32,000 nt of DNA from Candidatus Electronema halotolerans (GCA_942493095.1 OW818675.1:60001-92000), one strand, 5' to 3'; positions 598 through 30,288 are shown, numbered from the stretch's first letter. The notes: generated by a model not told the origin, from the letters alone. Numbers and translations: made by a program.

Positions 598-1230
598 ATG
601 AATCAAAAAATAGGCAAGAAACTGCAAGAATGGCTTGTTGATGAAGCCGAGGACGCACCTGCTGAAACTGTTTTAGAGACATTGCACAGAAAACTGTGCA
701 AAAGGATAAAATTCTGTTTTAATACAGAAAAAAGGATAGAAGAAAAAATAAAAAACTGGCTTACTGTTGAGGAACAGGAAAACTCTGCTGATTTTATTTG
801 TATAATTGAAGAATCTTTTTTTAAAACAAGAAAAATTATAGCTGCGACAAGTCATCGTATTGTTTTGTTTGAATACAGCCTTTCAGGCACCCTGAAAGAT
901 AAAAGTGATAAAATATGGCGGCAGCTTGTATCTGTGCATTTGCAGGAAAAAATTCCTTATTCCTCGTTGGAGCTTTGCTTCTTTCAGTTTCATGATTCAA
1001 TTTTTTATCACAATCCAAATCAGTTCAGCGACAAGCCCAAGATGAAGCACTGGAGGCTTGACGAGCTGAACAAGAAAAAAGCTCGAATTTTTTATGCTTT
1101 TTTGAAAAATAAAGAAATTGCCATGAAGGAAGCGAGGCGGCAGGAGCATCTCGACAATAAAATTGTCGGCGGCATGGGAGGCATGGCGCGGCCCGGAGGA
1201 GGAGGCCCGCCTCCGGGAGGCGGAAAGTAA
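598..1230 (+). CDS. Hypothetical protein with a bacterial PH-like core and a Gly/Pro-rich C-terminal tail
   Basis: 210-aa ORF. The core (FICIIEESFFKTRKIIAATSHRIVLFEYS...) resembles bacterial PH/YokE-like domains. The tail is GGMGGMARPGGGGPPPGGGK. The coding sequence is strikingly AT-rich compared with its neighbours. Confidence 0.6.
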   Translation: MNQKIGKKLQEWLVDEAEDAPAETVLETLHRKLCKRIKFCFNTEKRIEEKIKNWLTVEEQENSADFICIIEESFFKTRKIIAATSHRIVLFEYSLSGTLKDKSDKIWRQLVSVHLQEKIPYSSLELCFFQFHDSIFYHNPNQFSDKPKMKHWRLDELNKKKARIFYAFLKNKEIAMKEARRQEHLDNKIVGGMGGMARPGGGGPPPGGGK

Positions 1231-1245
1231 GCCTCCGGCATTTTT
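1216..1245 (+). terminator. Weak hairpin plus T-run overlapping the stop codon of the 598..1230 gene
   Basis: GGAGGC (1216-1221) pairs with GCCTCC (1231-1236) around a 9-nt loop, followed by GGCA and TTTTT (1241-1245). The stem is short and partly a by-product of Gly/Pro codons. Confidence 0.25.
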
Positions 1246-1246
1246 C

Positions 1247-1819
1247 ATGATGCGGCAGGGCAATCAAGTGCGGAACAATGATGAGTACAGGTCGTTGACC
1301 AAGCTGCTGGCCAAGATTGGTCAAGAGGCTGGCACTTCGTTCTGCATCAGTCTCATTCCCGGCTTGGCCGGATTGCTGGCTGCCGCCCTGAACAGCGTCT
1401 TGGGCACCTTTGGCTTTCTGCTGAAATTTCGCAGTGAGAGCGCAGAGCTTGTAACAAATTTGCTGGGCGGCGGCACTGGCTTTCTTTCCCGCAAGGAGCT
1501 GCGCCGCATTAAGCTGGAATTAGTCAGATGTGCGAAAAGAAACAAGGAATACGGAAAAGCGCTGGCCTTGGTCTGCGGCATTCTGGAGACAGACGCTGAA
1601 TGCGCTGAGGCCCTGCTGCTCAAAGCCATGATCCTGCATGAAGGTTTTAATGATTCCGCAGGCGCACGCCTGTCTTTGAGAAAACTGATGCGTCTGCGTC
1701 CTGATGCGGACAACGATCTTCTGCGCCGCTGGGGAGCGGCTCTGCATGACGAGCTTTGCCTGCAACAGAAACGCGGACAGGACAATTCCTCTGATCAAGT
1801 GCGGATACGATATGAATGA
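1247..1819 (+). CDS. Hypothetical protein with one hydrophobic segment and a helical TPR-like C-terminus
   Basis: I placed the start at the first ATG (1247) of the 1163..1819 frame, which avoids overlap with the upstream gene; the start is uncertain. Hydrophobic stretch FCISLIPGLAGLLAAALNSVLGTFGFLL. C-terminus is helical repeat-like (YGKALALVCGILETDAECAEALLLKAMILHE). Sits directly upstream of minD. Confidence 0.5.
   Translation: MMRQGNQVRNNDEYRSLTKLLAKIGQEAGTSFCISLIPGLAGLLAAALNSVLGTFGFLLKFRSESAELVTNLLGGGTGFLSRKELRRIKLELVRCAKRNKEYGKALALVCGILETDAECAEALLLKAMILHEGFNDSAGARLSLRKLMRLRPDADNDLLRRWGAALHDELCLQQKRGQDNSSDQVRIRYE

Positions 1820-6661: not shown

Positions 6662-6669
<8 letters not shown>
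5443..6669 (+). CDS. Glycosyltransferase family 4 (GT-B fold)
   Basis: GTG start. C-terminal GT4/GT1 signature RVEGLSNALLEAMSWGLPVLVSD (E-x7-E type). Confidence 0.85.
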
Positions 6670-10039
<3,370 letters not shown>

Positions 10040-10240
10040 ATCATTTTCTGACACTCCTCCAGTGCCTTCGTTTTGGAAAATACTGAGAAATTTTCCAAAA
10101 AAGAAGTGGTACCCCGGAACAGGCTTCAATGCAAGCAAAAAAAACAGGCCCCCGGCTCTTTCCTTGATTTTGCACAGCTTTTCCCTTCAGCGGCCAGCAG
10201 GCGGCATTGCCGTAAAAAAGCTGTTAAATTCGATGATTAG

Positions 10241-10269
10241 TTGACAAGTCTGTTCTGGACGGTACAATA
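10241..10269 (+). promoter_or_regulatory. Candidate sigma70 promoter for the corrinoid/kinase operon
   Basis: TTGACA (10241-10246), a 17-nt spacer, then TACAAT (10264-10269), about 50 nt upstream of ATG 10320. Lies in the divergent intergenic region. Confidence 0.45.
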
Positions 10270-10319
10270 GCATTCAGAGACAATCCGCAACAATTCATTC
10301 TTTTTTGAGGAGTGCGTCC

Positions 10320-10961
10320 ATGAGCAGCGCGGCAGCCCGCAGCCTGAATTTTGCTGACCGGCTTTTGTCCTTGGACAGGCTGGGAGCGGAGGAGATGCTG
10401 GAGCAAGCTGAAGGTCGGCAGCCTCTTCTGCTGATTGAGGAACTGATTGTTCCTGCCCTTGAGGAAATTGGCCACCGCTGGGAACGGGGTGAGACCGCTC
10501 TGGCGCAGGTCTATATGAGCAGCCGGATCTGCGAGGAGCTGATGGCCCGCTTTCTGCCGTCATCCAGCCCGGAGCGGCTCAAGCAGCCCAAGCTCGGCAT
10601 CGCCCTTTTGGACGACTACCATGCCTTGGGCAAGATCATTGTCTGCGCCGCCCTCCGGGCCAGCGGCTGGGACCTGCATGACTACGGCAGGATGACCGCG
10701 CCGGAGCTGGCCGAGCAGGTGATTGAGGATCAGATCGGCATTCTTTTAGTTTCCACGCTCATGCTCCGCTCGGCCCTGCAAGTCAAGGAGCTGCAGGCGC
10801 GGCTGACTGCTGCCGGTTCTCAGACCAAAATCATAGTCGGCGGCGCGCCCTTTCGTTTTGACCCGGAACTCTGGCTGGAAGTGGGCGCGGACGCGACCGG
10901 CAACGACGCTGCCGAGGCAGTGCGGGCCGTGGCCCGCTGCATGGAGGAGTTTTCCCAATGA
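10320..10961 (+). CDS. Corrinoid (cobalamin-binding) protein, MtaC/MtbC/MtsB-like
   Basis: ATG 7 nt after GAGGAG. N-terminal helical cap followed by a Rossmann-type B12-binding domain with the base-off/His-on motif DxHxxG (DDYHALG). Also SGWDLHDYG and LLVSTLM elements. Confidence 0.85.
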   Translation: MSSAAARSLNFADRLLSLDRLGAEEMLEQAEGRQPLLLIEELIVPALEEIGHRWERGETALAQVYMSSRICEELMARFLPSSSPERLKQPKLGIALLDDYHALGKIIVCAALRASGWDLHDYGRMTAPELAEQVIEDQIGILLVSTLMLRSALQVKELQARLTAAGSQTKIIVGGAPFRFDPELWLEVGADATGNDAAEAVRAVARCMEEFSQ

Positions 10962-11986
10962 AGACAATGACCTCAATGGAGCGGGTCATGACCGCCCTCA
11001 GTCACCAGGAGCCAGACCGGGTGCCCTTTTTTCACCTCCTCACCATGCACGGGGCCAAAGAGCTGGGCCTGAGCATCCGCGACTATTTCAGCAAGGCCGG
11101 GCAGGTGATTGAGGGCCAGCTTCGCCTGCGGGCAAAGTACCGGCATGACTGCTTTTACTCACTGCTCTACGGCGCGGCGGAGTTTGAAGCCTTTGGCGGC
11201 GAGGTGATCTGGTACGAGGACGGCCCGCCCAACAGCGGCGAGCCAGTTCTGAAAACGCCGGCAGACATTCTGCGGCTGGAAGCACCAGTGCCGGAGGAGG
11301 TGCCCTGCCTGCGCCGGATGCTGGAGGTGATCAGCGGCTTGAAAGAACGGTGCGGCGATGAGGTGCCGATCATTGGCGTGGCCATTGCTCCCTTTTCTCT
11401 GCCGGTCATGCAGATGGGCTTTCCCGCCTATATTGAATTGCTCTATGAGGAGCCGGAGTTATTCAAACGGTTGATGGCTGTCAATCAGGAGTTCTGCGTT
11501 GCCTTGGCCAATGCCCAGTTTCAGGCCGGAGCAACCACGGTCTGCTATTTTGACCCGCTCGCCTCGCCGGACCTGATTCCAACGGAACTGTACCGCCGCA
11601 CCGGGCTGCTTGCGGCCCGGCACTGCCTGAACCATTTCAACGGCCCGCCCTGCGTCCATCTTGGTTCCAGCCGCTGCCTGCCGGTGATTGAGGAGCTGGC
11701 CGCGCTTGGCGCGGCAGCAGTCGGGGTCAGCGCGCTGGAGGATTTGGCCGCGGTCAAGGCGGCCTGCAAAGGCCGGATCACAGTGGCAGGCAACCTGAAC
11801 GGCATTGCCATGCGCCGCTGGAGCGCGGCCCAAGCTGAGGCGGAAGTGAAAAAGGCGATTGCCGCCGCTGCTGCGGGCGGCGGTTTCATTCTGACGGACA
11901 ATCACGGCGAAATTCCTTGGCAGATCAAGGATGAGACCCTGCTGGCCATTTCTGAGGCCGTGCATGAATGGGGGCGGTATTCATGA
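10958..11986 (+). CDS. Uroporphyrinogen decarboxylase (URO-D) family protein, MtaA/MtbA/MtsA-like methylcobamide methyltransferase
   Basis: 342 aa. N-terminus MTSMERVMTALSHQEPDRVPFF is typical of MtaA/CmuA-type URO-D family members. ATGA overlap with the upstream corrinoid gene. Confidence 0.85.
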   Translation: MKTMTSMERVMTALSHQEPDRVPFFHLLTMHGAKELGLSIRDYFSKAGQVIEGQLRLRAKYRHDCFYSLLYGAAEFEAFGGEVIWYEDGPPNSGEPVLKTPADILRLEAPVPEEVPCLRRMLEVISGLKERCGDEVPIIGVAIAPFSLPVMQMGFPAYIELLYEEPELFKRLMAVNQEFCVALANAQFQAGATTVCYFDPLASPDLIPTELYRRTGLLAARHCLNHFNGPPCVHLGSSRCLPVIEELAALGAAAVGVSALEDLAAVKAACKGRITVAGNLNGIAMRRWSAAQAEAEVKKAIAAAAAGGGFILTDNHGEIPWQIKDETLLAISEAVHEWGRYS

Positions 11987-13815
11987 CCCTCTGCTTCTTG
12001 GTCTGTGAGCATCTTCATGCTGACATGACTGCGGCGGCCCAAGCACAAGGGCTGACCGGCATTGAGCTGCGTGCTTTTCCGGCCCGCTGCGGCGGCCCGC
12101 CCTTGAGTGCCGAGGAGCTGACCGAACTGGCAGCACAGAGCAATGCTGAAGAAAAAGAGTTCTTTGGTTGCGGCTGCATAGGGCAGGAGATAGAAATCCC
12201 TGGCTGCCGGATTCGACGGCTGGAACAGTGCTTTCACCTGCTGATCAGTCCGACCTTGGCGGATGCGCTCCAGCGGAGCGGGGCCTGCCTGCTCACCTCC
12301 GGCTGGCTGGCCTGCTGGCGGCAGGAGCTGAACGAAGAAAAAGGACTTGGCGTTTTTTGGAATAAAATGATCCTGCTTGACACCAAGGCTGACCCGCAGG
12401 CGGAGCAGCATCTTGCTGAATTGGCCGCCTGTCTCCATCTGCCTATGGAAATCATGCCGGTCGGATTAGGATATGCCGGACTGTTTCTTGCCGCCGCCGC
12501 TGGCGAGCACCGGCAGAAAAAGCTCCAGCGGCAGGAGGAGGAGTCGCGGCGGCAGGCGGCGGAATCGGCCATGACCTTGGACATGCTCGGCCTGGTGGTC
12601 AAGGCGGCTTCTGAGGCCGAAGTGCTGGACGGCATTGCGGAACTGTTCCGCATGCTTTTCGCGCCCAAGGAGGTTCACTGCCTGCCAGTGGTCAGAGGGG
12701 GCCTGACTTCTGACCGGCTGGCCGTCCTGACCCCGGAGGAGCGGCAGAGCGCGGAAGAGCTGCTGACCCAGAGTGAACGGCAGCATGAACTGACTGCCAG
12801 CGGCGACGGGTTCTTTTTGCGCCTTGGCACTGACAGCGTGACTTCGGTGCTGGTGCTGGTCCGGCAGGTCACTTTTCCCCAGCATCTGTATTCCTACATC
12901 AACACGGCCCTGAATGTCGCCGGAGTCTGCGCCTTGGCAGTCGAGCATGTGCGCATTCTGAAAAAACTGCTCGACACCTCCCGGCTGGCAGGCAAGGCGG
13001 AAGTGGCCACTGAGGTGCTGCACAATGTCGGCAACACCTTCAACAGCATTTCCGTGGCCTCGGAGCGGCTGCGGGAAATGCTCCGGCAGAGCGGCTGTGT
13101 GACCCTGCCGCCGATCATCAAGCTGATCGAGGAGCACCAGGATAATCTGAGCGCGTTTTGCAGCACTGATCCCAGAGGCCAGAAGCTGCCCCGCTATTTT
13201 GCCAGCCTCTCTGGTCGGCTCATGCAGGAGCGGGAGCTGATGCTGGAGGAGGTGGGCCAGCAGCTCCGCCATATCCGCCGGGCAGCGGAAATCATCCGCA
13301 CCCAGCAGGACACGGCCAGGGGCAAGGGCTTTGTCGAGCTGCTCGACCTGCCAGCGGTGCTGGAGGAAAGTTTGGATATTTTCAGCAAAAAAATCATTGA
13401 GCGGCAGATCATTGTGGCGCGGGACTATGCTGTCCTGCCGCCGATCCGGGGCGAGCGGCACAAAATCCTCCAGATTGTCGGCAATTTGATCAGCAATGCG
13501 GCGGAAGCCTTTGATGGTCTTGAGGAACGGGAAAAGAAAATCACCTTACGCCTTTACCCTGCGGGCGGCAGCAAAGACGCTGGAGCTGTGCTGGAAGTGG
13601 AGGACAACGGCAAAGGCATCACCAAGGCTTTCATGGAGCGAATTTTTCAGTTCGGCTTCAGCGGCAAAGAGGGCGGCCACGGCTTTGGCCTGCACAATGC
13701 CGCCAACTTGGCCGCTGAAATGGACGGCTCGCTGCGGGCGGAAAGCGCGGGCAAGGATAAGGGCGCAATCTTCCGGCTGCTCCTGCCAACCGTGGCGGAC
13801 CGGAGACGGCAATGA
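11983..13815 (+). CDS. Cytoplasmic sensor histidine kinase with an N-terminal DUF1638-like Cys-rich domain and a GAF-like linker domain
   Basis: ATGA overlap with the upstream gene. N-terminal ~160 aa (LVCEHL...FPARCGGP...GCGCIG...EQCFHLLISP...CLLTSGWLACW) resembles DUF1638. H-box EVLHNVGNTFNSI; N-box GNLISNAAEA; G-boxes EDNGKGI and GHGFGLHNAA. No TM helices are obvious. Confidence 0.8.
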   Translation: MTLCFLVCEHLHADMTAAAQAQGLTGIELRAFPARCGGPPLSAEELTELAAQSNAEEKEFFGCGCIGQEIEIPGCRIRRLEQCFHLLISPTLADALQRSGACLLTSGWLACWRQELNEEKGLGVFWNKMILLDTKADPQAEQHLAELAACLHLPMEIMPVGLGYAGLFLAAAAGEHRQKKLQRQEEESRRQAAESAMTLDMLGLVVKAASEAEVLDGIAELFRMLFAPKEVHCLPVVRGGLTSDRLAVLTPEERQSAEELLTQSERQHELTASGDGFFLRLGTDSVTSVLVLVRQVTFPQHLYSYINTALNVAGVCALAVEHVRILKKLLDTSRLAGKAEVATEVLHNVGNTFNSISVASERLREMLRQSGCVTLPPIIKLIEEHQDNLSAFCSTDPRGQKLPRYFASLSGRLMQERELMLEEVGQQLRHIRRAAEIIRTQQDTARGKGFVELLDLPAVLEESLDIFSKKIIERQIIVARDYAVLPPIRGERHKILQIVGNLISNAAEAFDGLEEREKKITLRLYPAGGSKDAGAVLEVEDNGKGITKAFMERIFQFGFSGKEGGHGFGLHNAANLAAEMDGSLRAESAGKDKGAIFRLLLPTVADRRRQ

Positions 13816-15626
13816 AAAAAAACACCCGCTGCGACCGGATCTTAGTTGTTGACGACAATCAGGAAATTCACGCGGATATCAAAAAAATCCTCCAAAAGCC
13901 GCAGGTTTCGCCGGAATTGGATTCGCTCTTTGCTGATATCATCGGCCAGGCTCTTCCGGCAAAAGAGCAGCAGGGCAAGGAGCAGGCCGAGCTGATCATT
14001 GACTCCGCCTTTCAGAGCGAGGAGGCTGTGGCCTTGGTCCGGCAGGCCCGGCTGGAGCGCAGACCCTATGCAATGGCCTATATTGACATGCGGATGCCGC
14101 CCGGCTTGGACGGACTCCACACTCTGCGGCGGCTCCAGCAGGAGGATCATCAGCTTCATTTTGTCGTCATCACCGCTTATGCCGACTATTCCTGGCAGGA
14201 GATCAGCTCGGCCATGCTCTCCGCCGACAAGCTCCTGATCCTGAAAAAACCCTTTGAGGCCATAGAAATTCGCCAGTCCGCCAGTGCCCTGCTGGAAAAA
14301 TGGCATCTGACCTTGGAGCACCGGCAGGCCATGTCCGCCTTGGTTATGCAGCGCAACATGCTGGAGGAGCATGTCCGCGAGCAGACTGCCGAGCTGCGCC
14401 ACACCAATGAGCTGCTGACCAAGGAGATCAAGGAGCGGCGGCGGGCTGAGGAGAAGATCCGCCAGCACCGCGACAGTCTGGAAAAGCAGATTGAGCTGCG
14501 CAGCGCGGAAATCATGCAGCAGAACCGCTTTCTCAACACGGTCATCAATGCTCTGCCGCATCCCTTTGCCGTCATTGATGTGGCCAGCCACCGGATTCTC
14601 GCCGCCAACCGGGCGGCGGGCAGCCGGGCCGCCGGGCGTGACCATCTGCGCACCTGCTATCAGTTCATGCACGGTCTTTCTCGGCCCTGCCACGAACGGG
14701 ACATGGAATGTCCGCTCCAGACAGTCCGTCAGCACGGCAAGCCGGTGGTGCTTGAGCAGACCATGAACGGCCCGGATGGCTCCAAGCAGGTCATGGAGAT
14801 TCACGCCTGCCCGGTGCTTGAACGGGACGGCAGGATCACCAGGGTGATCGAATACTGCGTTGACATCACCCGCCGGAAAAAAATGGAGCAGGAGCTGATC
14901 AGAAACAGGAAGATGGAGGCCATCTCGACAATGGCGGGCGGCATTGCCCATGATTTCAACAATCTGCTCATGGCGATCACCGGCAATATCGAACTGTCGC
15001 TCCTCAAGCTGCACCCGGAGCACAGCGTGCTGCCGTTTCTCAAAAATGCGGCCTTCTCAGCAGAAGAGGCCAAGCATCTGGCCCATAAATTCCTTCTTTT
15101 CTCCCACTTTGCCCCGCCTGCGCGCAGGCCGGTGCCCTTGGCCGAGCTGATCGCGGCTGCGGCCAGAGCCGCGCTGGATGGCAGCGGCAGCACAGCGGAA
15201 CTGCACCTGCCAGACAACCTCTGGCTCCTTTATGCTGATCCTGGACAGATTGAGCAGCTGCTCCAGGAGCTGCTCAAAAATGCCCGTGAAGCAATGGCTC
15301 CGGCAGGCGGCACCGTGCGGATCAGCGCCGAGAATGTCTGCCTGCTCGGCCATGAGGCCAGCGGTCGCAGCCAGGGCCGCTATGTCAGGATTGCGGTCAG
15401 CGACAAAGGCTGCGGCATTAAGAAGGAAGACCTGCCCAAAATTTTTGATCCCTATTTTTCCGGCAAAAGCAGAGGCTCGGTCAAAGGCATGGGGCTGGGA
15501 CTGACCATTGCCGCCTTCATTGTCAGCCAGCATGAGGGCCATCTCGAAGCCGAGGCCGGGCCAGGAGGGGTTGGTGCCACTGTGCTTGTTGACATTCCCG
15601 CTGCCGAGGTGAACGGGAACAGCTGA
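13812..15626 (+). CDS. Response-regulator receiver / coiled coil / PAS / HisKA / HATPase hybrid kinase
   Basis: ATGA overlap with the upstream kinase gene. REC domain: ILVVDDNQ, phospho-acceptor context AYIDMRMPPGLDG, LKKPF. PAS with several Cys. H-box GGIAHDFNNLL; G-boxes SDKGCGI and GMGLGLTIA. Confidence 0.88.
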   Translation: MKKNTRCDRILVVDDNQEIHADIKKILQKPQVSPELDSLFADIIGQALPAKEQQGKEQAELIIDSAFQSEEAVALVRQARLERRPYAMAYIDMRMPPGLDGLHTLRRLQQEDHQLHFVVITAYADYSWQEISSAMLSADKLLILKKPFEAIEIRQSASALLEKWHLTLEHRQAMSALVMQRNMLEEHVREQTAELRHTNELLTKEIKERRRAEEKIRQHRDSLEKQIELRSAEIMQQNRFLNTVINALPHPFAVIDVASHRILAANRAAGSRAAGRDHLRTCYQFMHGLSRPCHERDMECPLQTVRQHGKPVVLEQTMNGPDGSKQVMEIHACPVLERDGRITRVIEYCVDITRRKKMEQELIRNRKMEAISTMAGGIAHDFNNLLMAITGNIELSLLKLHPEHSVLPFLKNAAFSAEEAKHLAHKFLLFSHFAPPARRPVPLAELIAAAARAALDGSGSTAELHLPDNLWLLYADPGQIEQLLQELLKNAREAMAPAGGTVRISAENVCLLGHEASGRSQGRYVRIAVSDKGCGIKKEDLPKIFDPYFSGKSRGSVKGMGLGLTIAAFIVSQHEGHLEAEAGPGGVGATVLVDIPAAEVNGNS

Positions 15627-16955: not shown

Positions 16956-16987
16956 TTGACAGTAAAGAATTGACCGTGCTATATAAT
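16956..16987 (+). promoter_or_regulatory. Candidate sigma70 promoter for the Mo-enzyme gene
   Basis: TTGACA (16956-16961) followed 18-20 nt later by TATATAAT (16980-16987), about 75 nt upstream of ATG 17064. Confidence 0.35.
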
Positions 16988-17063
16988 GCAATTGTTTTGC
17001 GAGAAAGGTCATTGTTTCTTTTGGATGCAAGAGAAGAATTTCAGGCAGTTTTGGAGAAAAGCG

Positions 17064-19853
17064 ATGGGTGAACAAGTCAGTTTGCTGAAGGCGGCAACCT
17101 ACCATTTTATCTCCCTTTTCTATCGGGATGAAATTTCCCTGCCGCTTTTAGAAAAGCTGTCTGGCAGCCAAGTTGCGGCGCAGATCAGCGGCTTGGGGAA
17201 TAACCAAGAAGCAGCAGAACTTCATGCTCCTTTGGCCCGGATGAACGGCTGGCTTCAATCTGCTCCGGCAGAGGAACTGTTCCGCGAGCTGCGCCATGAC
17301 TATGCCGAGCTGTTTCTTAATGCAGGCCAGAATCCCGCCTTCCCATACAGCTCCTGTTATGTTTCCAGCAAGATTGAGCCGCTGCTCATGCAGGAGCCGT
17401 TGTTCCAAGCGCGCAAGGCCTATCATGCCAGCGGACTGCATAAGAACCCTGCTTGGCCGGACTTGGATGACCACATTGCCGTGGAGCTGGAATTCATGGC
17501 TTATTTGGCCGGACAAGCTGGAACTGAGAAGCAGCAGGCAGATTTTCTCTGCAATCACCTCCTGCCTTGGGCCGAGCCATTCTGCACCCAGCTTGCTGAT
17601 TCCGCAACAACAGATTTTTACAAAGGGCTGGCTGATCTGACAACAGCGGTGCTGACTGCGGATGATGCCACGCTCGCGGCCTTGGAACCGCTGCTGGCTG
17701 CGTTAGACGTGGACACTCAATTAGTCACGCTGGCGGAAGGGGCAGTGCCGCCGACAGAAGACAGCAGTGTCAAGACGCATTGCTATGTCTGCGCTGGTCT
17801 TTGCGGGCAGGAAATTAGAATCAAAGACGGGGTTATTGTCGGCTGCAAAGGGCTGGCCGGTGATCCCAAGGGTGGCGGGCGGCTCTGCATCAAAGGCGCG
17901 AATGCGCATAAGAACACCTATTCCGCCTACCGTTTGAAAACGCCGCTTATTCGTGAGCAAGGCCGATTCCGCAAAGCCTCTTGGCAGGAAGCCCTTGACC
18001 TGACTGCGGACAAGCTGAAGAGCTTTGCTCCCAAGACAGTCGGCTTTCATCAGGGCAATGACTTTAACAGCTGGTGTCACGATGCGGTCATGGCGGCCTA
18101 TGGCACACCCAATAAGACCACCCATCGCCAGATGTGCGACAATCCCAACCGGATGGCCAATGAGCACTGTCTGGGCGAGAAGCGGCCTTGGCTTGACTAC
18201 GCGCATTCGCAGTATATTCTCCTCTTTGGCATCAATGAGCTGGCCACCTCTGTCGGGCAGCGCAAGGTCAGCCTGCTCAAACAGGCGGTGAAGAATGGAG
18301 CCAAGCTGGTGGTGGTTGATCCGCGCCGCTGCGAGACAGCCCAGCTTGCCACCGAGTGGATACCGATCATTCCCGGCACAGACGGCGCCTTGGCAATGGC
18401 GATGTGCTATGTCATTGTTGCGGACAATCTTTATGACAAAAACTTCACGGAAAACTGGTGCTATGGCTTTGCCGAGTTCAATCAACGGCTGCTGGGCGAG
18501 GAGGACGGCATAGTTCGCAGTCCGCAATGGGCCGAGGCCATCTGCGGCGTGCCAGCGGCAACCATTGAGCGGCTGGCCCGTGAGTTTGCTGCTGCCGCCC
18601 CTGCCGCAGGCGCACTGTCATGGACTGGGGTTGGTCAGACACCAAATGCTGTTCACGCCACCCAAGCGATACAGGCCCTGAACGCCCTGCTCGGCTGCTT
18701 TGACGCGCCCGGCGGCCCGGCCTTGGTCGGCAAGTTCAAGCTAGCCTCGCCGTGGGCGGATGATCAGCCTAAGCCGCCCAAAAACGCCGAGAAGTTCAAA
18801 CTCAATCCCGGCAGACTGTGGAGCGGTTGGATTCCGGCCTATTTTGAAGAAGATGCGCAGGCCGGGCGGCTCAAGGCCATGCTCTGCTATTTCGGCAATC
18901 CGGTCATGTCCAGCGGCGCGGAGCCAAGCCTGCGCCGAGCGGTTGACAAGCTGGACTTTGCTTGCGCCATTGACTGCTTTATGAGCAATACTGACGAGCT
19001 GTGCGACGTGGTATTGCCGGACTGCACCTATTTGGAGCAGAGCCGGGTGGTTTCTGACTGGATGTATGAATCCTTTCTTTCGCTGGGCCAGAAGGCGATT
19101 GAGCCGCTGTATGAATCTCGGCCCGTGGTCTGGATATTCACGGAGCTGGCTCAACGGCTCGGCTTTGGCGAATATTTCCCGTGGCAGAGCGAGGACGAGT
19201 ACCTGCGCAATCAGCTCCGCAATCAGCAGGTGACGCTGGAGGAGCTGCGCGAGACGGGCTATTTCATCACCGACCCACAAGCCTTCCGCAAGTACGAGCA
19301 GTGGGGTTCGATCAATCCGCCGCCCGGTTACGGAGCCTCTGGTCACAGCGCGACCGGCAAATACAACTTCATCAATCCTGTTGCAGAAAAGGCTGGCCTG
19401 AACGCCCTGCCTGACTACCTGCCGCCGTGGCAGGACTGGCCGGAACTGGCCCCTGATGCGGATTATCCGCTCATTCTTGGCTACTTCCGGCTGCTGGAGC
19501 ATGAGCACACTGCGACCTGCTGGAATCCGGCCTTGATGAAGCAGTGCGGCAGCAATCCGGTCTGGATCAACTGGTTAGATGCGAAAGCCAGCAGCATTGC
19601 GGACGGCGATAAGGTGCTGATCGCTTCGCCTTGGGGACAGGTTCAGGGGACAGCAAAAGTGACGTGGGATATTCGTCAAGGTGTGCTGGCCACAGCAGGC
19701 GGCTTTGGCGGCAGATACGGGCTGGAAGGTGATCCTAAGTTTCCAAGCTGCGGCGGCTTCAACACCAATGTCCTCCTGCCGCCCAACGTGGCCTGCAAAT
19801 GGTCTGGCACCCCGCCGCTGAAGTATATCAAAACCAGAATTGAAAGGATTTGA
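17064..19853 (+). CDS. TorD/DmsD-like chaperone domain fused to a molybdopterin (bis-MGD, DMSO-reductase family) oxidoreductase catalytic subunit
   Basis: ATG 6 nt after GGAGA. The N-terminal ~200 aa carry TorD-family signatures (DYAELFLNAGQNPAFPYSSCY; DDHIAVELEFMAYLA). After an Ala/Leu/Asp-rich linker comes the MopB 4Fe-4S motif C-x2-C-x3-C...C (HCYVCAGLCGQ...RLCIKG). MopB and C-terminal molybdopterin-binding regions follow, ending in VLIASPWGQVQGTAKV. No twin-arginine signal and no in-frame stop. Confidence 0.85.
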   Translation: MGEQVSLLKAATYHFISLFYRDEISLPLLEKLSGSQVAAQISGLGNNQEAAELHAPLARMNGWLQSAPAEELFRELRHDYAELFLNAGQNPAFPYSSCYVSSKIEPLLMQEPLFQARKAYHASGLHKNPAWPDLDDHIAVELEFMAYLAGQAGTEKQQADFLCNHLLPWAEPFCTQLADSATTDFYKGLADLTTAVLTADDATLAALEPLLAALDVDTQLVTLAEGAVPPTEDSSVKTHCYVCAGLCGQEIRIKDGVIVGCKGLAGDPKGGGRLCIKGANAHKNTYSAYRLKTPLIREQGRFRKASWQEALDLTADKLKSFAPKTVGFHQGNDFNSWCHDAVMAAYGTPNKTTHRQMCDNPNRMANEHCLGEKRPWLDYAHSQYILLFGINELATSVGQRKVSLLKQAVKNGAKLVVVDPRRCETAQLATEWIPIIPGTDGALAMAMCYVIVADNLYDKNFTENWCYGFAEFNQRLLGEEDGIVRSPQWAEAICGVPAATIERLAREFAAAAPAAGALSWTGVGQTPNAVHATQAIQALNALLGCFDAPGGPALVGKFKLASPWADDQPKPPKNAEKFKLNPGRLWSGWIPAYFEEDAQAGRLKAMLCYFGNPVMSSGAEPSLRRAVDKLDFACAIDCFMSNTDELCDVVLPDCTYLEQSRVVSDWMYESFLSLGQKAIEPLYESRPVVWIFTELAQRLGFGEYFPWQSEDEYLRNQLRNQQVTLEELRETGYFITDPQAFRKYEQWGSINPPPGYGASGHSATGKYNFINPVAEKAGLNALPDYLPPWQDWPELAPDADYPLILGYFRLLEHEHTATCWNPALMKQCGSNPVWINWLDAKASSIADGDKVLIASPWGQVQGTAKVTWDIRQGVLATAGGFGGRYGLEGDPKFPSCGGFNTNVLLPPNVACKWSGTPPLKYIKTRIERI

Positions 19854-19884: not shown

Positions 19885-19908
19885 GCAATGACAAGCCAGC
19901 GTCATTGC
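19885..19908. terminator. Hairpin between convergent genes, a possible bidirectional terminator
   Basis: GCAATGAC (19885-19892) pairs with GTCATTGC (19901-19908) around an 8-nt loop. It overlaps the flippase stop codon. No T-run follows. Confidence 0.25.
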
Positions 19909-21347
19909 ATGGTGCTTCCGCTGCATCTTGGCCACCGCAGCCTGCTGAGGTCGTCCAATGAAACCAAACGCAGCAGGAAACCAGCTCCTGCGCAGATGAA
20001 AACACCAAGCAGCAGTGGCAGAATAATGCCATAGTTCTGGGCTATTGCAGCGGCTGCTGTTCCGGCTGCGCCGCCGATTGTCAGCGTCAGCATGGTTTTG
20101 GTCAGCATGGCGGGCAGCAGGTCGCGGAAGAGCAGCCAGTTGATGACAAACATCAGGCCGCTGGAAAGAACAATTGCCCAGCTGCTGCCGAGCGACGCAT
20201 AGTGCGGTATCAGAAGCAGATTGCCTATTCCGCAGAGCAGCACTCCTGCCGCCTGCACCCAGCCCATTGCGCTGACCCGTTTTGCGGCAATGAAAAAGGC
20301 ATCAAAGATCGTGTTGAGAAAGGAAAAGCTGATCGACAGGGAAAGAATGCGGAAAACCTGCGCTGAAGCCGTGAAGTCCGGGCCGAGAATGAGCGGAATG
20401 ATCTGATCTGCCAAGGCGGCGGCAAAAAAGGTCAGCAGGAGGCAGACAAGGAGCATGAAGCGGAACACGGCCTGACTGGTCTGGCGCAGCTCGTCCCGAT
20501 TTTCGGCAAAAAAGAGGCGGGAGAAGATCGGCAGCAGGACTGGCATGAAGGTCATGGGAATGATCTGCACTCTGGTGAAAATGCGGAATGGAGCCTGAAA
20601 CAGGGCTGCCTCGGCATTGCCCGCCAAGACCTTGAGAAGAAAAACGCCTGTGTAAAGGTGCAGCTGCACCAAGAGTTGAAACAGGCCGATCTGCAAGGAC
20701 TCACGCAGCAGGTCTTTGGCGTGGCGCAAGGTGAAAATTTGCCGAGGCAGCTCGCGCAGATAAGGCGAGAGTTTGCTGGTCAGCCAAATTGTTGTCATGA
20801 AACCGGCCAGACAGGCAAGGGCATTGGCACTGAAAATCGCTCCAAGACCGAGCTGCCAGCGCATGACAAGGGCGACCAAGCCAATCAGGACAAAGGCGCT
20901 GGTCAGAGCCGGGATGGTTTCGTACTGCATCCGCTGCAAGGCAATGCTGACTGTGCCTGCGGTCTGGGTCATGGCCATGATGCCGGTGGTTGCGGCAATG
21001 ATCAGCAGCAGCTTGAGATCAGGCAGATTGATGAACGAGCCGACTACCAGCAGCCCGGCGGCGATGAGCAGGGTCAGAAGCAGATTCCATGTCCAGCCGA
21101 GCAGAATATGTCCAGCCGCACGTTCCTTGTGCTGGGCGATTTCCCGGACTAAAATTCTCGGAAAGCCCAAGTTCAGGAGCGGCAGGGCCACCCAGCCAAT
21201 GGCCATGAGCACGGAATAGCGGCCAAAATCTTCCAGCCCCAAATAGCGGGACAGCATCCCGACCAAGGTTAGGCCGACCAGCAGCTCGGCGGCGCGGGCG
21301 GCAAAAGTGAAGCTGAGATTGGCCGCCATGCGGCGGGTTTCACCCAT
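19902..21347 (-). CDS. Polysaccharide biosynthesis flippase (Wzx-like, MOP superfamily)
   Basis: Polytopic membrane protein with about 12-14 hydrophobic segments, of the polysaccharide-biosynthesis/oligosaccharide-flippase type. Start set at ATG 21347 (MGETRRM...) because 21348 onward belongs to the IS inverted repeat; the open frame runs to 21374 inside the IS end. Confidence 0.85.
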   Translation of the reverse strand: MGETRRMAANLSFTFAARAAELLVGLTLVGMLSRYLGLEDFGRYSVLMAIGWVALPLLNLGFPRILVREIAQHKERAAGHILLGWTWNLLLTLLIAAGLLVVGSFINLPDLKLLLIIAATTGIMAMTQTAGTVSIALQRMQYETIPALTSAFVLIGLVALVMRWQLGLGAIFSANALACLAGFMTTIWLTSKLSPYLRELPRQIFTLRHAKDLLRESLQIGLFQLLVQLHLYTGVFLLKVLAGNAEAALFQAPFRIFTRVQIIPMTFMPVLLPIFSRLFFAENRDELRQTSQAVFRFMLLVCLLLTFFAAALADQIIPLILGPDFTASAQVFRILSLSISFSFLNTIFDAFFIAAKRVSAMGWVQAAGVLLCGIGNLLLIPHYASLGSSWAIVLSSGLMFVINWLLFRDLLPAMLTKTMLTLTIGGAAGTAAAAIAQNYGIILPLLLGVFICAGAGFLLRLVSLDDLSRLRWPRCSGSTMQ

Positions 21348-21363
21348 GGGTTCCTCGAAAAAT
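21348..21363. repeat. IS left terminal inverted repeat (IRL)
   Basis: GGGTTCCTCGAAAAAT, immediately preceded by CCAT (21344-21347). Confidence 0.8.
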
Positions 21364-21410
21364 ACAACATCCATTCTGCTGCATTTGTTTTGTTATTTTT
21401 TATTTTAATA

Positions 21411-21477: not shown

Positions 21478-22491
21478 ATGAACCAACTTGGATTTTTTGA
21501 TTTTTATATTCGTCTTTCCCGAATTGACAAAGCAGGTGATCCTTTAGTTAAGATCAACAAGGCTATTGACTGGGAAATATTTCGGCCAATTCTTGAAGAA
21601 GCAAAAAGAAAGCCTGTGAAATCAAATGCTGGAGCTAAAGGTTATGATTCAGTCATGATGTTCAAAATTTTAATTTTGCAATCATTATACAATCTTTCTG
21701 ATAAAGGGATGGAATATCAAATTCTTGACAGATATTCGTTTTCCAGATTCCTTGGACTTCGGGCGGCTGACAAAGTTCCAGATGCGACAACGATATGGCT
21801 TTTTCGTGAAACTTTGACCAAAGCAGGAAAAATCGAGGAACTGTTTTCTGTTTTTGACGAATTTCTTGATGAAAATGGATATCAAGCCAGAAAAGGGCAG
21901 ATAGTCGACGCTTCCATAGTCAACGCCCCGATCCAGCGTAACAGCCGCAAGGAAAACAAGCAGATCAAGAATGGTGAACAGCCTGAAGGATGGAGTGAGA
22001 ATAAGCAGGCGCAGAAGGATACTGATGCCCGTTGGACCAAAAAGAACGGCAGAAGCTTTTTTGGTTATAAAAATCATATATCTGTTGATGTGAAGCATAA
22101 ATTCATCCGAAAATATGCGGTGACCAGCGCCGAGGTTCATGACAGCAATATTTTTGAGGAGCTGCTTGACCCTGACAACACCAGTCGGGATATCTATGCG
22201 GATTCGGCATACAGATCTGAAAAAAAGCTCAACTGGTTGAACGAGAATGGATACAGAGAGCATCTGAACCGCAAAGGAACACGAAGCCGGAAACTGACCG
22301 AATGGGAGAAGCAGGGAAATCGGACAAGATCAAAAATTCGCTCCCGGATTGAACACGTCTTCGGCATCCAGGCGCAACGTGCTGGCAATATGATTCTCCG
22401 AGGAACAGGTTTCATTCGCGCTGCTGCGAAAATAGGCTTGAGAAACTTGACGTTCAATATTGACAGGTACGGAACTCTTAATAAAATTTAA
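21478..22491 (+). CDS. IS5-family DDE transposase
   Basis: 337 aa. N-terminus (FFDFYIRLSRIDKAGDPLVKINKAIDWEIFRPILE) and DDE contexts (QIVDASIVNAP; IYADSAYRS; RSRIEHVFG) are typical of IS5-group transposases such as InsH. Confidence 0.92.
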   Translation: MNQLGFFDFYIRLSRIDKAGDPLVKINKAIDWEIFRPILEEAKRKPVKSNAGAKGYDSVMMFKILILQSLYNLSDKGMEYQILDRYSFSRFLGLRAADKVPDATTIWLFRETLTKAGKIEELFSVFDEFLDENGYQARKGQIVDASIVNAPIQRNSRKENKQIKNGEQPEGWSENKQAQKDTDARWTKKNGRSFFGYKNHISVDVKHKFIRKYAVTSAEVHDSNIFEELLDPDNTSRDIYADSAYRSEKKLNWLNENGYREHLNRKGTRSRKLTEWEKQGNRTRSKIRSRIEHVFGIQAQRAGNMILRGTGFIRAAAKIGLRNLTFNIDRYGTLNKI

Positions 22492-22627: not shown

Positions 22628-24742
22628 TTATCTCAAATTTTTCGAGGTTCCCCCATGACGGCAGGCGGCTGCCGCAGACAGGCGGCTTTGTCTGCACTTG
22701 TTGAACACCCAGCCGACCTCTTGAATGCCTGCCTGCTGGATGCGCTGCTGTGTCTCCTCAGCTTCTGCCAGCAAAGTTTTGCCGCATTCAAGCACACAGA
22801 TGAGCAAATCCGCTGCCGGGCTGAGAATGAGCGCGTCGCTGCCTGCCCGCAGAGAGGGACTGTCCAGCAAGACCATCTCATAGCCTTGGCCGCAATCACG
22901 CAGCAGCGGCAGCAGCTCAACAGCGTCGATGATGCTGCCCGGATCAGCAATATTTCGGCCCGCAGTGAGAATATCCAAGCCAGGAGCTGCATCAGGGCGC
23001 AGGGCCTCCTTAAAAGGCAATTTGCCTGCAATGACTTCAGCCAGCCCCTGCCGGTTTTTCAAAGCAAAGCTGCGATGCAGGACAGGCTGACGCAGGTTAA
23101 GATCAATGAGCAGGGTCTTTTTCCCGGCAGCGGCACAGGACAAGGCGAGATTGGCGGCCAGACTGCTCTTGCCTTCGCCGTTGCTGGAACTGGTGATCAG
23201 CACTATCTGGGCAGGCTTGCCGCCAGCCGCAAAAGCGAGACTGTGACGGATGCTCCGGTATGACTCAGCTAAGGGTGAACCGGGCGGCAGGCGGGAAAGC
23301 AGCCGCCGTCCGCGCAGGTGGCGGAAAAAAGGAATGCTGCCCAGCAGCCTGAAGCGGTCAAAATGGCGCAGGTCCGCAGGCGACTGAATGGCGGTGTCGA
23401 TATATTCAACGAAAAACGCGGCTGCCGTGCCCCAGAACAGGCCGAGAAACAATCCGGCCATGAGCATGATGGATTTCTTGGGAAATTTTTTCTTGTCAGG
23501 AACTTGCGCTGGTTCGACCACTCTGGTGTCAGACAAGGCGACCGCTTCAGCGACCTCCACTTTGCGCAGATAGGTGAGAAAAGTCTCATACACGTCTTTG
23601 CTGGAGGAAAGAGACAGCTCCAGCTGGGCCAGCCGGGCGGATTTCTCTGGAATGGCAGCCAATTTTTTCTCATATTCAGCAATCATGCGCCGGAGCAGGG
23701 TGCTTTTGGCCCGTCCCACTTCCCGGCTGATCTGAAGATCAACCAATTTGCTCGACAGAGAGTCATAAACCGGATCAATGCCGAAATTTTTTCGGTTCAA
23801 GGTGATGCTCTCGCTCTGGCTGATCAATTCCTTGACCTTGTCCAATTCGCTGGCCAACTGCTTGTATTCAGGATGATCTTTCTGATAGACCGTGCTCTTG
23901 GCGGCAAAGCTGATCAGCAGTTCGTTCAACTTTGCCTTCAGCGCGGTCATCTCGCCGTCTTTGGAAAATTCCTCAGTCTCCTGCCGATACTTGCTCACCT
24001 TGTTGAGCTGGGCCTCTGCGCTGGCGATTTCCTTGTCCTGCAAGGCAAGAAGCTGCTTGTTGTCCTCGTAACTTTTTGTCAGGTCGTTGAGCCGGGACAT
24101 GGTGTTGCTCAACTCAGTGTCCAAGTCTGCCGCGTTTTCATTGACTTTGAAGGCCGTCAGGTCGTCAAGCGCTGTGCTGTAATCGGCATGAAGCAGGGGC
24201 AGTTTATTTTTTATGAATGCCTTGACTTTGCCGAACTCAGCCTGCGCCCGCTGGACATTGAAGTCAAGATACAGCTCTGCCAGCCGGTTGGCAATTTGGG
24301 CAGACTGCTCCGCTTCTGGCGAGGTGGCCGTGATTTTGAGAATCGCGGTGTCCTCCTCCTGCTTGATCTTGACCGCAGGCTGGGGCAGCAGCTTGTTGAT
24401 CAGCGCGGCATCGACCAAATCCTCGGCCTTGATGGTCTCGCCATCCCGGTCTTTCAATTTGAGTTTCTTGATCAAATCGTCCAACAGCGGCCTGACCTTG
24501 GCCAAGGCGGTCTTGGTCTCAAAGATATCCTCATCGCTGCTTGCCACAGTGCCGGGCATGTCCAGCTCGGCCATCAATGACGACAGGGCACTGGAGGACT
24601 GAATAAAGAGCTTGGCCACGGCCTGATAGGTGGGCGTGATCAGCACGGCTCCGGCGGCAAAGGCGAGGAAGAAAAAAAGAAAGACGGCAAGGAAGGTGCA
24701 TTTCCGCCGCAGGAGGGTGTCCAGCAGTTGTAAAAATTCCAT
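22628..24742 (-). CDS. Polysaccharide co-polymerase / tyrosine-autokinase-like protein (Wzc/GumC/EpsG type, PCP-2)
   Basis: ATG 24742 after AAGGA. N-terminal Wzz-type TM segment, long coiled-coil periplasmic region and a second TM. C-terminal P-loop domain (Walker A SSSNGEGKSS, Walker B MVLLDSPS). The last 7 codons plus the stop lie inside the IS right end. Confidence 0.88.
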   Translation of the reverse strand: MEFLQLLDTLLRRKCTFLAVFLFFFLAFAAGAVLITPTYQAVAKLFIQSSSALSSLMAELDMPGTVASSDEDIFETKTALAKVRPLLDDLIKKLKLKDRDGETIKAEDLVDAALINKLLPQPAVKIKQEEDTAILKITATSPEAEQSAQIANRLAELYLDFNVQRAQAEFGKVKAFIKNKLPLLHADYSTALDDLTAFKVNENAADLDTELSNTMSRLNDLTKSYEDNKQLLALQDKEIASAEAQLNKVSKYRQETEEFSKDGEMTALKAKLNELLISFAAKSTVYQKDHPEYKQLASELDKVKELISQSESITLNRKNFGIDPVYDSLSSKLVDLQISREVGRAKSTLLRRMIAEYEKKLAAIPEKSARLAQLELSLSSSKDVYETFLTYLRKVEVAEAVALSDTRVVEPAQVPDKKKFPKKSIMLMAGLFLGLFWGTAAAFFVEYIDTAIQSPADLRHFDRFRLLGSIPFFRHLRGRRLLSRLPPGSPLAESYRSIRHSLAFAAGGKPAQIVLITSSSNGEGKSSLAANLALSCAAAGKKTLLIDLNLRQPVLHRSFALKNRQGLAEVIAGKLPFKEALRPDAAPGLDILTAGRNIADPGSIIDAVELLPLLRDCGQGYEMVLLDSPSLRAGSDALILSPAADLLICVLECGKTLLAEAEETQQRIQQAGIQEVGWVFNKCRQSRLSAAAACRHGGTSKNLR
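22637..22652. repeat. IS right terminal inverted repeat (IRR)
   Basis: ATTTTTCGAGGTTCCC, whose reverse complement is GGGAACCTCGAAAAAT. Immediately followed by CCAT (22653-22656). Confidence 0.8.
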
Positions 24743-24943
24743 TGAATCCTTGTGATCAGCAGGACATTCCGCTGTGCCTGGCAAGCAGGATTTCCGCCGC
24801 CCGCAGCATATCTTCGGGCAGCACTGCCTGCCTACATTTCTGCGCAGTTCGTGGATTCAAGTTGCACATGCAACTTTTGCTGGATTGAAAAAAGACTGGC
24901 AGCATTGTCTTGCTCATCAGCGGGCAAAGCGGGCGCGCTGCAA

Positions 24944-28467: not shown

Positions 28468-29088
28468 TCAGTCATCAATCACCGCTGTGCTGACCTGCTG
28501 GATATCCTTCTTCCGCACAAGGACGACCCTGCCGTCCTTGGCCGTGATCTTCACCTCCGCGCCCTGCTGTTCAATCGTTTCCGCATAATAAACTTGGCCG
28601 GAATGCAGGATCACCACTTTGGTTTCAGTCCGGCTGGGCAGGTGGAGCGGCTTCAGAATGGCGTTTTTCAGCGCGGCCCGCTTCTCGCCCGGCATGTGCA
28701 GAATGATGATCAGGCCCGCAGTCAGGGCGATCACTCCGGCAAGCAGCAGCCCTCGGCCAAACCAGTTCACCTTTTTGCCAGTCGGCTGAATTCTGCCCTT
28801 GCGCACGACAAAGAAGTAGTATTCCTTGTTGTCGATGCGCAGTTCCTCGCGCAGGTCCTTGTCAGCAGCCTTGCCGCCGCAGGAGCAGATCGTGTCCGCC
28901 TCAGCGACAAATTGGCCGCAGCAGTCGCAGATGCGCTGTGAATTTCTGCTTGATGAGTAAAAGGTCTGATCAGGCTGGAGAACAAAGCGATTGCCGCACT
29001 CAACGCATTTGAGCGACCGTTTTTTGCGCAGCTTCTCGGTTCCTTCAATCAGATAACACGCGCCGCAGGTGCCGCAGCGAAACTTCAT
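28468..29088 (-). CDS. MJ0042-type zinc-ribbon protein with one TM helix and a small C-terminal beta-rich domain
   Basis: Strong RBS AAGGAGGAG. N-terminus MKFRCGTCGACYLIEG...LKCVECGNRF is the MJ0042 CxxC...CxxC ribbon. Second Cys cluster CDCCGQ...CSCGG. TM segment GLLLAGVIALTAGLIIIL. Confidence 0.75.
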   Translation of the reverse strand: MKFRCGTCGACYLIEGTEKLRKKRSLKCVECGNRFVLQPDQTFYSSSRNSQRICDCCGQFVAEADTICSCGGKAADKDLREELRIDNKEYYFFVVRKGRIQPTGKKVNWFGRGLLLAGVIALTAGLIIILHMPGEKRAALKNAILKPLHLPSRTETKVVILHSGQVYYAETIEQQGAEVKITAKDGRVVLVRKKDIQQVSTAVIDD

Positions 29089-29103
29089 TGTGCTCCTCCT
29101 TGC

Positions 29104-30063: not shown

Positions 30064-30288
30064 CTTATTCCTTCCACGTTGTTTTTCAGGTCGGCCCGCG
30101 CTTCACTCTATCAGATCACCGCCCCTGTCGGCAAAGAAAAACTGAGCTGTTCCGGCAAGGCAGGGGCGGGCGGCTCTTTTCCCCTTGACGCTGCGGACTG
30201 AAAAGAATAAAAAGTATCTTTCAGCCAAGCGAAAATGAACCGCCCTCCTTGCGAGGGCTTGGATTTCAACCCCCCAGGAGGAAAAAAC

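Follow-up and report, generated by a model that had tools for sequence, protein, structure and literature searches.

What is a DUF1638 domain, typically a stand-alone protein of approximately 200 residues, doing at the front of a histidine kinase? The question is raised by a 32,000-nucleotide stretch of the genome of Candidatus Electronema halotolerans (GCA_942493095.1, OW818675.1:60001-92000; hereafter the window, meaning the whole stretch analysed), in which a DUF1638-like segment rich in cysteines is fused to a kinase part of 450 residues. The first-pass annotation of the window had singled out this fusion as a clue to the function of an orphan family, linking it to corrinoid chemistry and possibly to a metal or iron-sulphur (Fe-S) site. 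It placed the segment correctly at 11983-12480, which corresponds to residues 1-166 of the kinase. We find that the kinase gene belongs with the genes for a corrinoid protein and for a protein resembling uroporphyrinogen decarboxylases (URO-D) and the methyltransferase MtaA, and that this trio probably serves to convert the state of a B12 protein into a signal for the cell. The gene and the domain in question are as follows.

11983-13815, plus strand: DUF1638-type sensor histidine kinase of 610 residues (open reading frame, Pfam, orthologue alignment and full-length model)
11983-12462, plus strand: DUF1638-like two-lobed alpha/beta input domain, residues 1-160 (Pfam, hhalign and AlphaFold2 model)

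The Pfam profile of the family (PF07796) matches the kinase itself with 25.9 bits (E = 1e-5), just under the gathering cutoff of 27, and the match aligns only the C-terminal two-thirds, with residues 74-164 on positions 51-156 of the 161 in the profile. Among its homologues, 73 of 74 distant representatives and all 35 proteins from loci in GTDB genomes match PF07796 at E <= 1e-3, the best of them at 1e-13, and most orthologues carry the family as a precomputed annotation. A profile of 44 subfamily sequences was also aligned by hhalign to a DUF1638 protein of Geomonas (L015:1132-1746), a full-scoring family member with 86.8 bits in Pfam, which gave a probability of 98.8% and an E-value of 7e-17 over 171 columns. 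Since the homologues and the subfamily profile match the family despite the sub-threshold score of the window copy, we consider membership settled: residues 1-160 are a divergent DUF1638 member within a distinct sensor subfamily. The original assignment is borne out, the DUF1638 similarity on which it hung having been searched for and found. Motifs in common with classical DUF1638 proteins, in a comparison limited to ten members of one full-scoring clade, are a cysteine after each of strands 1, 3 and 4, xxW...W, LDTG and LP. It is apparent why the window copy scores low: the orthologues of the Electronema clade have lost a WGFD..TA..FF segment and the window kinase departs from the family consensus at several positions (E14D, Y102C, P106S and G135K). 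NCBIfam holds no model for the DUF1638 domain, the middle region of the kinase or the stand-alone members, and a tblastn search of plasmids with a full-scoring DUF1638 protein returned nothing.

How common is the fusion? Among 1.84 billion representatives, a phmmer search with residues 1-176 found 671 that match at E <= 1e-3, of which 287 reach E <= 1e-10, a similarity far in excess of chance. This exhaustive HMMER search was needed because word indexing is too coarse for the domain: a word-indexed search returned one fragment with the domain alone and five matches with the 44-sequence profile. Most of the proteins matched by phmmer are 500-1400 residues long, and the domains found with DUF1638 include HATPase_c with HisKA, HisKA_2, HisKA_3 or HWE, as well as PAS, GAF, REC, GGDEF, HD-GYP, EAL and SpoIIE. 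A constant N-terminal domain combined with exchangeable outputs is a hallmark of input domains, and the DUF1638-type domain is the N-terminal module of many signalling proteins. The fusion to a kinase is real, as the first-pass annotation had it, but it is not singular, being one instance of a widespread subfamily with several signalling outputs. We also considered that the kinase ATPase might power a RamA-like corrinoid reactivation, and rejected this idea given that the same domain is fused to GGDEF, EAL, HD-GYP and SpoIIE. With a 12-sequence alignment as query, 39 related loci were found in GTDB genomes of at least 10 phyla, including Thermodesulfobacteriota, Chloroflexota, Actinomycetota and Verrucomicrobiota with Kiritimatiellia; Riflebacteria, Nitrospirota, Acidobacteriota, Spirochaetota, Coprothermobacterota and Pseudomonadota are further groups represented. 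Stand-alone DUF1638 proteins occur within the same subfamily (L019, L023 and P0270). Members of 410-445 residues (L007:8001-9233, L011, L012, L014, L015:8001-9236, L018 and L022) consist of the DUF1638 domain, the helix, a small alpha/beta domain and a short tail, and Pfam recognises no output domain in them.

What the domain might sense is best approached through the genes around it. The sensor kinase is the third gene of a compact operon, the other elements of which are listed here.

10241-10268, plus strand: sigma-70-like promoter ahead of the operon, TTGACA-16-TACAAT, 11/12 matching positions (consensus scan only)
10305-10961, plus strand: corrinoid (B12-binding) protein with cap and Rossmann domains (Pfam B12-binding_2, 49.2 bits; B12-binding, 62.5 bits)
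10958-11986, plus strand: URO-D/MtaA-like protein (Pfam URO-D, 176 bits), overlapping both neighbouring genes by 4 nucleotides
13812-15626, plus strand: REC-PAS-histidine kinase hybrid (Pfam Response_reg, 41.4 bits with a cutoff of 30.2; PAS_4, 40.4 bits; HATPase_c, 73.7 bits)

At 11983, the start codon of the kinase (ATG) shares bases with the upstream stop codon in the sequence ATGA, and the last 4 nucleotides of the sensor gene are also the first 4 of the REC-PAS-kinase gene. An open reading frame scan offers ATG 11968 as a second possible start of the kinase; the position of the MTLCF start is common to most orthologues. The start of the corrinoid gene is uncertain (TTG 10305 or ATG 10320). 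Rfam detected no riboswitch or other RNA family in the whole window, so that no cobalamin riboswitch was found there. In cable bacteria, the four-gene operon is kept and the genes beyond it differ. The order corrinoid, URO-D-like and sensor gene, traced by tblastn with the window proteins, is present in the window, in 36-37 of the 39 GTDB loci and on the Azoarcus plasmid pAZKH; most exceptions are contig ends, and two loci (L023 and L024) lack an adjacent URO-D-like gene. Across related loci, the two partner proteins are 43-64% identical to those of the window and the DUF1638 domain 24-47%, with the URO-D-like protein at 50-62% across phyla. Clustering of all open reading frames from 41 loci yielded only three conserved families, namely the sensor (41 loci), the URO-D-like protein (39) and the corrinoid protein (38). 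Neither an MT1 substrate methyltransferase nor a RamA-type activase is conserved near the module in these loci, and both could be encoded elsewhere in these genomes. Tandem modules are present in two loci (L021:6496-9233 and L023:8001-11174), in which a second corrinoid gene stands directly before a second sensor gene with no second URO-D-like gene, suggesting that the corrinoid-sensor pair is the core unit. In the tandem module of L023, a 204-residue stand-alone DUF1638 protein comes first. We conclude that the sensor gene shares a transcript with the corrinoid and URO-D-like genes and is evolutionarily locked to both. The corrinoid connection made at the outset has thus become much stronger, with corrinoid and URO-D/MtaA-like genes directly upstream both in the window and in nearly all 41 loci.

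The REC-PAS-kinase gene also follows the sensor in Electrothrix, Electronema, L004, L005, L009 and Azoarcus, and its product is likely the next relay step after the sensor kinase. Plasmid pAZKH of Azoarcus sp. KH32C, a cultivated betaproteobacterium, carries an annotated example of this four-gene module (L040, NC_020548.1 271288-276437; AZKH_RS24050, 24055, 26485 and 24065), situated between formylmethanofuran dehydrogenase/fhcD and pyrroloquinoline quinone-dependent methanol/ethanol dehydrogenase genes in a formylmethanofuran/tetrahydromethanopterin island, a neighbourhood that hints at a link to one-carbon metabolism. Electrothrix communis has an extra URO-D-family gene (L041:4916-5971) just upstream of its operon. 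In the window, the operon is adjoined by a divergently transcribed gene for a 1158-residue hybrid kinase (6662-10138, minus strand) with dCache_3, two PAS, HisKA, HATPase_c, REC and Hpt domains, and an Electronema contig has this neighbour too (L042:2777-6175).

Which residues of the domain could do the sensing? Residues 1-166 contain 10 cysteines (positions 4, 8, 36, 63, 65, 75, 83, 102, 111 and 150), or 6.0%, compared with 4 (0.9%) in the other 444 residues of the kinase. Conservation was assessed in two sets of sequences: 41 full-length orthologues (35-88% identity) of cable bacteria and their relatives, and 148 more distant representatives, clustered at 50% identity and 26-49% identical to the query. 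Four cysteine codons stand out.

12004-12006, plus strand: Cys8, at the end of strand 1; invariant in the 41 orthologues and 96% conserved in the 148 representatives
12088-12090, plus strand: Cys36, in the loop after strand 2 (FPARCGxPP); invariant in the 41, 97% in the 148
12175-12177, plus strand: Cys65, just after strand 3; invariant in the 41, 95% in the 148
12229-12231, plus strand: Cys83, just after strand 4 (EQCFHLL); invariant in the 41, 99% in the 148

The first-pass annotation had counted at least nine cysteines and made their conservation among orthologues a test of its proposal. The count is right, with ten present, and the contexts that it quoted are all found (CGGP within ARCGGPP, GCGC within FGCGCIG, EQCFHLL and SGWLACW), its C5 actually being C4. 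As to conservation, the claim holds for these four of the ten only; the other six are specific to the Electronema clade and unconserved in the 41 orthologues, and we reject the idea that all ten are important. The strict four-cysteine pattern is present in 128 of the 148 representatives, and in most of the remainder a cysteine is shifted by one or two alignment columns. W108, W112, D133, T134, P154 and G161 are conserved as highly as the four cysteines.

An AlphaFold2 model of the domain, built from the 44-sequence alignment, is two-lobed alpha/beta with a predicted local distance difference test score (pLDDT) of 94.8 and a predicted template modelling score of 0.88. In this model, each of the four cysteines immediately follows one of strands 1-4, and the PGW and LLDT motifs are at the ends of strands 5 and 6. 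The conserved residues would thus all be at the C-terminal edge of the sheets, the usual cofactor site of such folds. We infer that the four cysteines, with W108, W112 and LLDT, line a single pocket between the lobes, where they would hold a metal ion or Fe-S cluster. A Foldseek search of the PDB with the domain model gave no match at E < 1e-3, and a PDB sequence search with the domain profile gave nothing meaningful; with no solved DUF1638 relative, the fold offers no direct functional lead. The best TM-score (0.46-0.48, Foldseek probability 0.91-0.97) is to the N-terminal ligand-sensing domain of PrpR (PDB 2pju), which is likewise two-lobed alpha/beta with a cleft between the lobes. The match is weak (E 5e-3 to 2e-2, 7-9% identity, root-mean-square deviation 8-9 A) and is a resemblance of fold class, no evidence of homology. 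The next Foldseek matches are LacI/periplasmic-binding-like proteins.

The sub-threshold Pfam score of the window copy, its lost segment and its changed positions could also mean that the DUF1638 domain is a decaying remnant in this genome, or a structural or dimerisation module that senses nothing. We regard this as very improbable, because the cable-bacteria orthologues retain the four cysteines, W108, W112, the LLDT motif, P154 and G161, the domain is modelled very confidently, and the operon is intact with its genes overlapping.

A sister clade provides a further view of the putative site. It comprises the full-scoring Geomonas DUF1638 protein (within the module at L015:123-4194) and nine metagenomic relatives (L043-L051, e.g., L046:5001 onward). 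Wherever the contig extends upstream, a corrinoid gene and a URO-D-like gene, the latter different from that of the sensor subfamily, come before the DUF1638 gene. Some DUF1638 proteins of this clade stand alone, with a GAF-PAS-kinase-REC gene next to them, and others carry PAS and HD-GYP domains in the same chain, so the trio occurs in unfused as well as fused forms. The clade retains cysteines at the positions of C8, C65 and C83, and it has an invariant histidine (DSMLHMNP) one column beside C36, an offset that falls in a loop and is within alignment error. Replacement of Cys36 by a neighbouring histidine is the behaviour expected of a metal ligand and, together with the placement of the cysteines at strand ends, suggests a metal or Fe-S site in the DUF1638 sensor domain.

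Such a site could make the domain a sensor in its own right. In this alternative, DUF1638 would respond autonomously to redox state, O2 or a metal via its own Cys4 site, and the corrinoid and URO-D-like genes would be co-transcribed or regulated cargo. Four near-invariant cysteines at strand ends fit with this, as does the location of the protein: inspection of the 610-residue sequence revealed no long hydrophobic stretch, so that the kinase is presumably soluble and cytoplasmic. There is also a precedent in Fe-S kinases such as NreB, a histidine kinase of the cytoplasm that senses O2 through a Cys4 [4Fe-4S] cluster in a PAS fold. NreB and the window kinase are alike in being soluble kinases with an N-terminal input domain that has four essential-looking cysteines; they differ in that the input domain of the window kinase is a two-lobed alpha/beta DUF1638 fold with a corrinoid partner, whereas that of NreB is a PAS fold without one. 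The gene neighbourhoods argue the other way. The trio is kept across output domains and phyla with nothing else conserved around it; a regulated pathway should include a substrate methyltransferase and an activase, neither of which is conserved nearby; and the corrinoid-sensor pair is duplicated as a unit. Moreover, the stand-alone DUF1638 protein of Phaeobacter inhibens has a B12-enzyme phenotype. On balance, we think a self-contained sensor fairly unlikely.

The partner proteins bear on what would be sensed. The corrinoid protein has a DxHxxG motif (DYHALG), of which D.H.LG is at least 90% conserved in 39 homologues, and from this motif it is of the base-off/His-on type. Its nearest relatives are methyltransferase corrinoid proteins, with MttC and MtmC among solved structures and TIGR02370 among families; CarH-type photoreceptors are less close. 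The URO-D-like protein is approximately equidistant from uroporphyrinogen decarboxylases and MtaA (E of about 3e-11 for each), and the NCBIfam MtaA/CmuA model scores it at 96.7 bits, below the cutoff of 235. Aligned to MtaA (4ay7), it has a glycine at the cysteine of HxC, and the cysteine ligands of the MtaA zinc site are absent. The family instead conserves H234 (H234-x-G) and D314-N-H316-G-E318, the latter (DNHGEIP) aligning to the GHG motif of uroporphyrinogen decarboxylases. Without the zinc-site cysteines, the URO-D-like protein is not a standard thiol-methylating MT2, and its chemistry may differ from that of known MT2 enzymes. The URO-D-like paralogues of the sister clade have neither the MtaA zinc site nor the histidines.

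The missing thiolate ligands allow for a different possibility, in which the URO-D-like protein moves a methyl group between cobalamin and a metal-activated cysteine thiolate of DUF1638, producing a switch of the Ada type. If the enzyme has no zinc-thiolate ligands of its own, the activated thiolate must come from the acceptor, for which the Cys4 or Cys3+His site is a candidate. The module has a single methyltransferase-like gene, and a methyltransferase-type corrinoid protein carrying DxHxxG. Against this, irreversible cysteine methylation would make a one-shot sensor, the requirement of methionine synthase for a stand-alone DUF1638 protein is not obviously explained, and the URO-D-like proteins of the second clade lack even the histidines. 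A methyl-driven switch on the domain itself appears distinctly unlikely to us.

The corrinoid protein might itself be the receptor, either of B12 or, through a photolabile Co-C bond, of light, so that the module reports cobalamin availability or light and DUF1638 is an adaptor. The B12-binding module does match CarH weakly in NCBIfam (E = 2e-6), and its distant PDB matches include B12-binding photoreceptor and GGDEF structures. However, its best relatives are the methyltransferase corrinoid proteins, and a comparison of the cap region with the Wx9EH motif of CarH-type proteins did not reveal that motif. Many hosts are, by their names and sample sources, apparently anaerobes from dark sediment or groundwater, and the highly conserved URO-D-like protein would be left without a role. 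We regard this possibility as decidedly improbable.

How would a signal reach the kinase? The full-length AlphaFold2 model (pLDDT 82) has the elements listed here.

12469-12600, plus strand: long linker helix, coiled-coil-like, residues 163-206 (44 residues; 168-211 in P0002 numbering), from the full-length model
12613-12870, plus strand: small alpha/beta GAF/PAS-like middle domain, residues 211-296, from the secondary structure of the full-length model
13021-13023, plus strand: codon of His347, the presumed phospho-acceptor in EVLHNVGN, from invariance and helix position
13336-13785, plus strand: catalytic ATP-binding domain HATPase_c (Pfam 65.4 bits, cutoff 26.4)

The coiled coil, GAF-like region and HNVGN-type H-box read initially from the sequence are all present in this model. 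The middle domain has no Pfam match; it is kept along with the DUF1638 domain in most family members, with the consensus motifs LF.MLFAP and YLN.AL....VC.LAI.NAR. The EVLHNVGN motif sits on a 70-residue helix (residues 299-368), and H-N-V-G-N, including His347, is invariant in the 41 orthologues. Pfam HisKA has no match in the kinase, and His347 is the presumed phospho-acceptor from its position only. A helical insert separates this helix from the HATPase_c domain, the solved relatives of which are ZraS, FixL and CckA. Foldseek matches the C-terminal half of the full-length model to the solved class I kinases HK853, YF1 and a bacteriophytochrome kinase, with E-values from 1e-13 to 1e-16. The kinase part is intact.

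Data on stand-alone DUF1638 proteins supply an independent, genetic context. In Phaeobacter inhibens, the B12-dependent split methionine synthase depends on such a protein and also on a RamA-like one (PMC5764234), and in Ruegeria pomeroyi one is induced with RamA during growth on N-osmolytes (PMC12478193); stand-alone DUF1638 co-occurs with a RamA-like activase (PMC5764234; PMC12478193). These data and the conservation of the trio lead us to infer that B12-binding proteins are what DUF1638 domains bind or act on. Our preferred reading, to which we give slightly better than even chances, is that the DUF1638 domain reads its dedicated corrinoid protein, either for methylation or for redox state, and thereby controls the kinase. 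It would be the URO-D-like protein that determines how the bound cobalamin is methylated or reduced, and the DUF1638 domain would dock on the corrinoid protein to read the outcome. The resulting change would travel via the 44-residue helix and the GAF/PAS-like domain to the His347 helix and alter autophosphorylation, after which the phosphoryl group would pass to the REC-PAS-kinase encoded next. Candidate signals are methyl-donor supply, a very low redox potential or O2, and B12 status. A bolder generalisation is a "cobalamin relay" in at least 10 bacterial phyla, a sensory device of a kind not recognised before, in which a methyltransferase-like enzyme writes the methyl or redox state of protein-bound B12, and DUF1638 either reads it or takes the methyl group on a metal-activated cysteine, so driving two-component, cyclic di-GMP and phosphatase outputs; we consider it unlikely in this broad form.

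Several points weigh against the reading of a corrinoid-protein state. Gene order alone cannot separate co-sensors from regulated targets. The URO-D-like partner is without the MtaA zinc-thiolate site, and no MT1 or RamA-type activase is conserved nearby, so that a normal methyl-transfer cycle cannot be assembled from the module alone. The clustering of the four cysteines at one place is taken from the topology of a predicted model only. Finally, the window copy, with its departures from the consensus and its lost WGFD..TA..FF segment, could behave atypically.

The proposed system can be compared with several that are known. PGA1_c13340 of P. inhibens and SPO2162 of R. pomeroyi belong to the DUF1638 family like the window kinase, are encoded beside a B12-binding protein gene and, like the window sensor, are tied to a corrinoid-dependent methyltransferase. 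They are stand-alone proteins of approximately 200 residues that support an enzyme (split methionine synthase, glycine betaine demethylation), whereas the window sensor is the N-terminal module of a kinase and belongs to a separate subfamily with a fourth cysteine. The MtaA/MtaC systems of methanogens and acetogens likewise pair a His-on corrinoid protein (DxHxxG) with a URO-D-family protein. The module differs from them in that no MT1 or RamA-type activase is nearby, the MtaA zinc ligands His-x-Cys...Cys are not kept, and its connection is to signalling proteins, not to a catabolic pathway. CarH/LitR and AerR/PpaA sense light by means of a B12-binding domain that is either part of a transcription factor or attaches to one. 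A cobalamin-binding module is the sensing element there, as we propose here, but in our module the corrinoid protein is a separate one of the methyltransferase type, joined by a DUF1638 sensor and a URO-D-like protein, and its outputs are two-component or cyclic di-GMP signalling. The MsmS/RdmS kinases of Methanosarcina use haem-binding GAF domains for sensing and control the expression of methyltransferases. They resemble the window kinase in their genetic association with corrinoid methyltransferase genes; unlike the window system, they have no DUF1638 and no conserved trio of corrinoid protein, URO-D-like protein and sensor. The architecture is visible in annotations, one NCBI orthologue being named "DUF1638 domain-containing protein" and PF07796 and PF02518 being precomputed together on most. 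Full-text literature searches (DUF1638/PF07796; corrinoid or cobalamin with histidine kinase and URO-D) returned no description of the fusion or the trio. The gene trio is widespread and apparently undescribed in the literature.

Elsewhere in the window, a gene at 16986-19853 encodes an unusual single polypeptide, in which a TorD/NarJ-like chaperone domain (Nitrate_red_del, residues 75-200) is fused N-terminally to a molybdopterin oxidoreductase with Fe4S4, Molybdopterin and Molydop_binding domains. An IS-type transposase (21478-22491; DUF772 and DDE_Tnp_1) lies between polysaccharide-synthesis genes, with a flippase at 19902-21374 and a Wzz/tyrosine-kinase-like protein at 22628-24784 as its neighbours. 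Several open reading frames of 200-400 residues at 28468-31317 (minus strand) and 598-1819 (plus strand) have no Pfam match at E <= 1e-4.

For the DUF1638 family, the finding is of consequence because this orphan family has one genetic phenotype on record, in the B12-dependent split methionine synthase, and no mechanism. Its role, in a large subfamily, as an input domain of kinases, diguanylate cyclases and phosphatases, its pairing with corrinoid and URO-D-like proteins and its Cys4 or Cys3+His site turn a vague annotation into concrete experiments. If the cobalamin relay is true, the contact it proposes would also explain why B12-dependent methionine synthase needs a stand-alone DUF1638 protein. 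The system is a sensor kinase with accessory proteins, here based on B12. The module itself occurs in Geobacterales and cable bacteria as well as in Actinomycetota, Chloroflexota, Verrucomicrobiota and other groups. B12-based regulators so far comprise riboswitches, CarH/LitR, AerR and PocR/EutR, and sensing via protein-bound cobalamin, if true, would add a new class to this short list.

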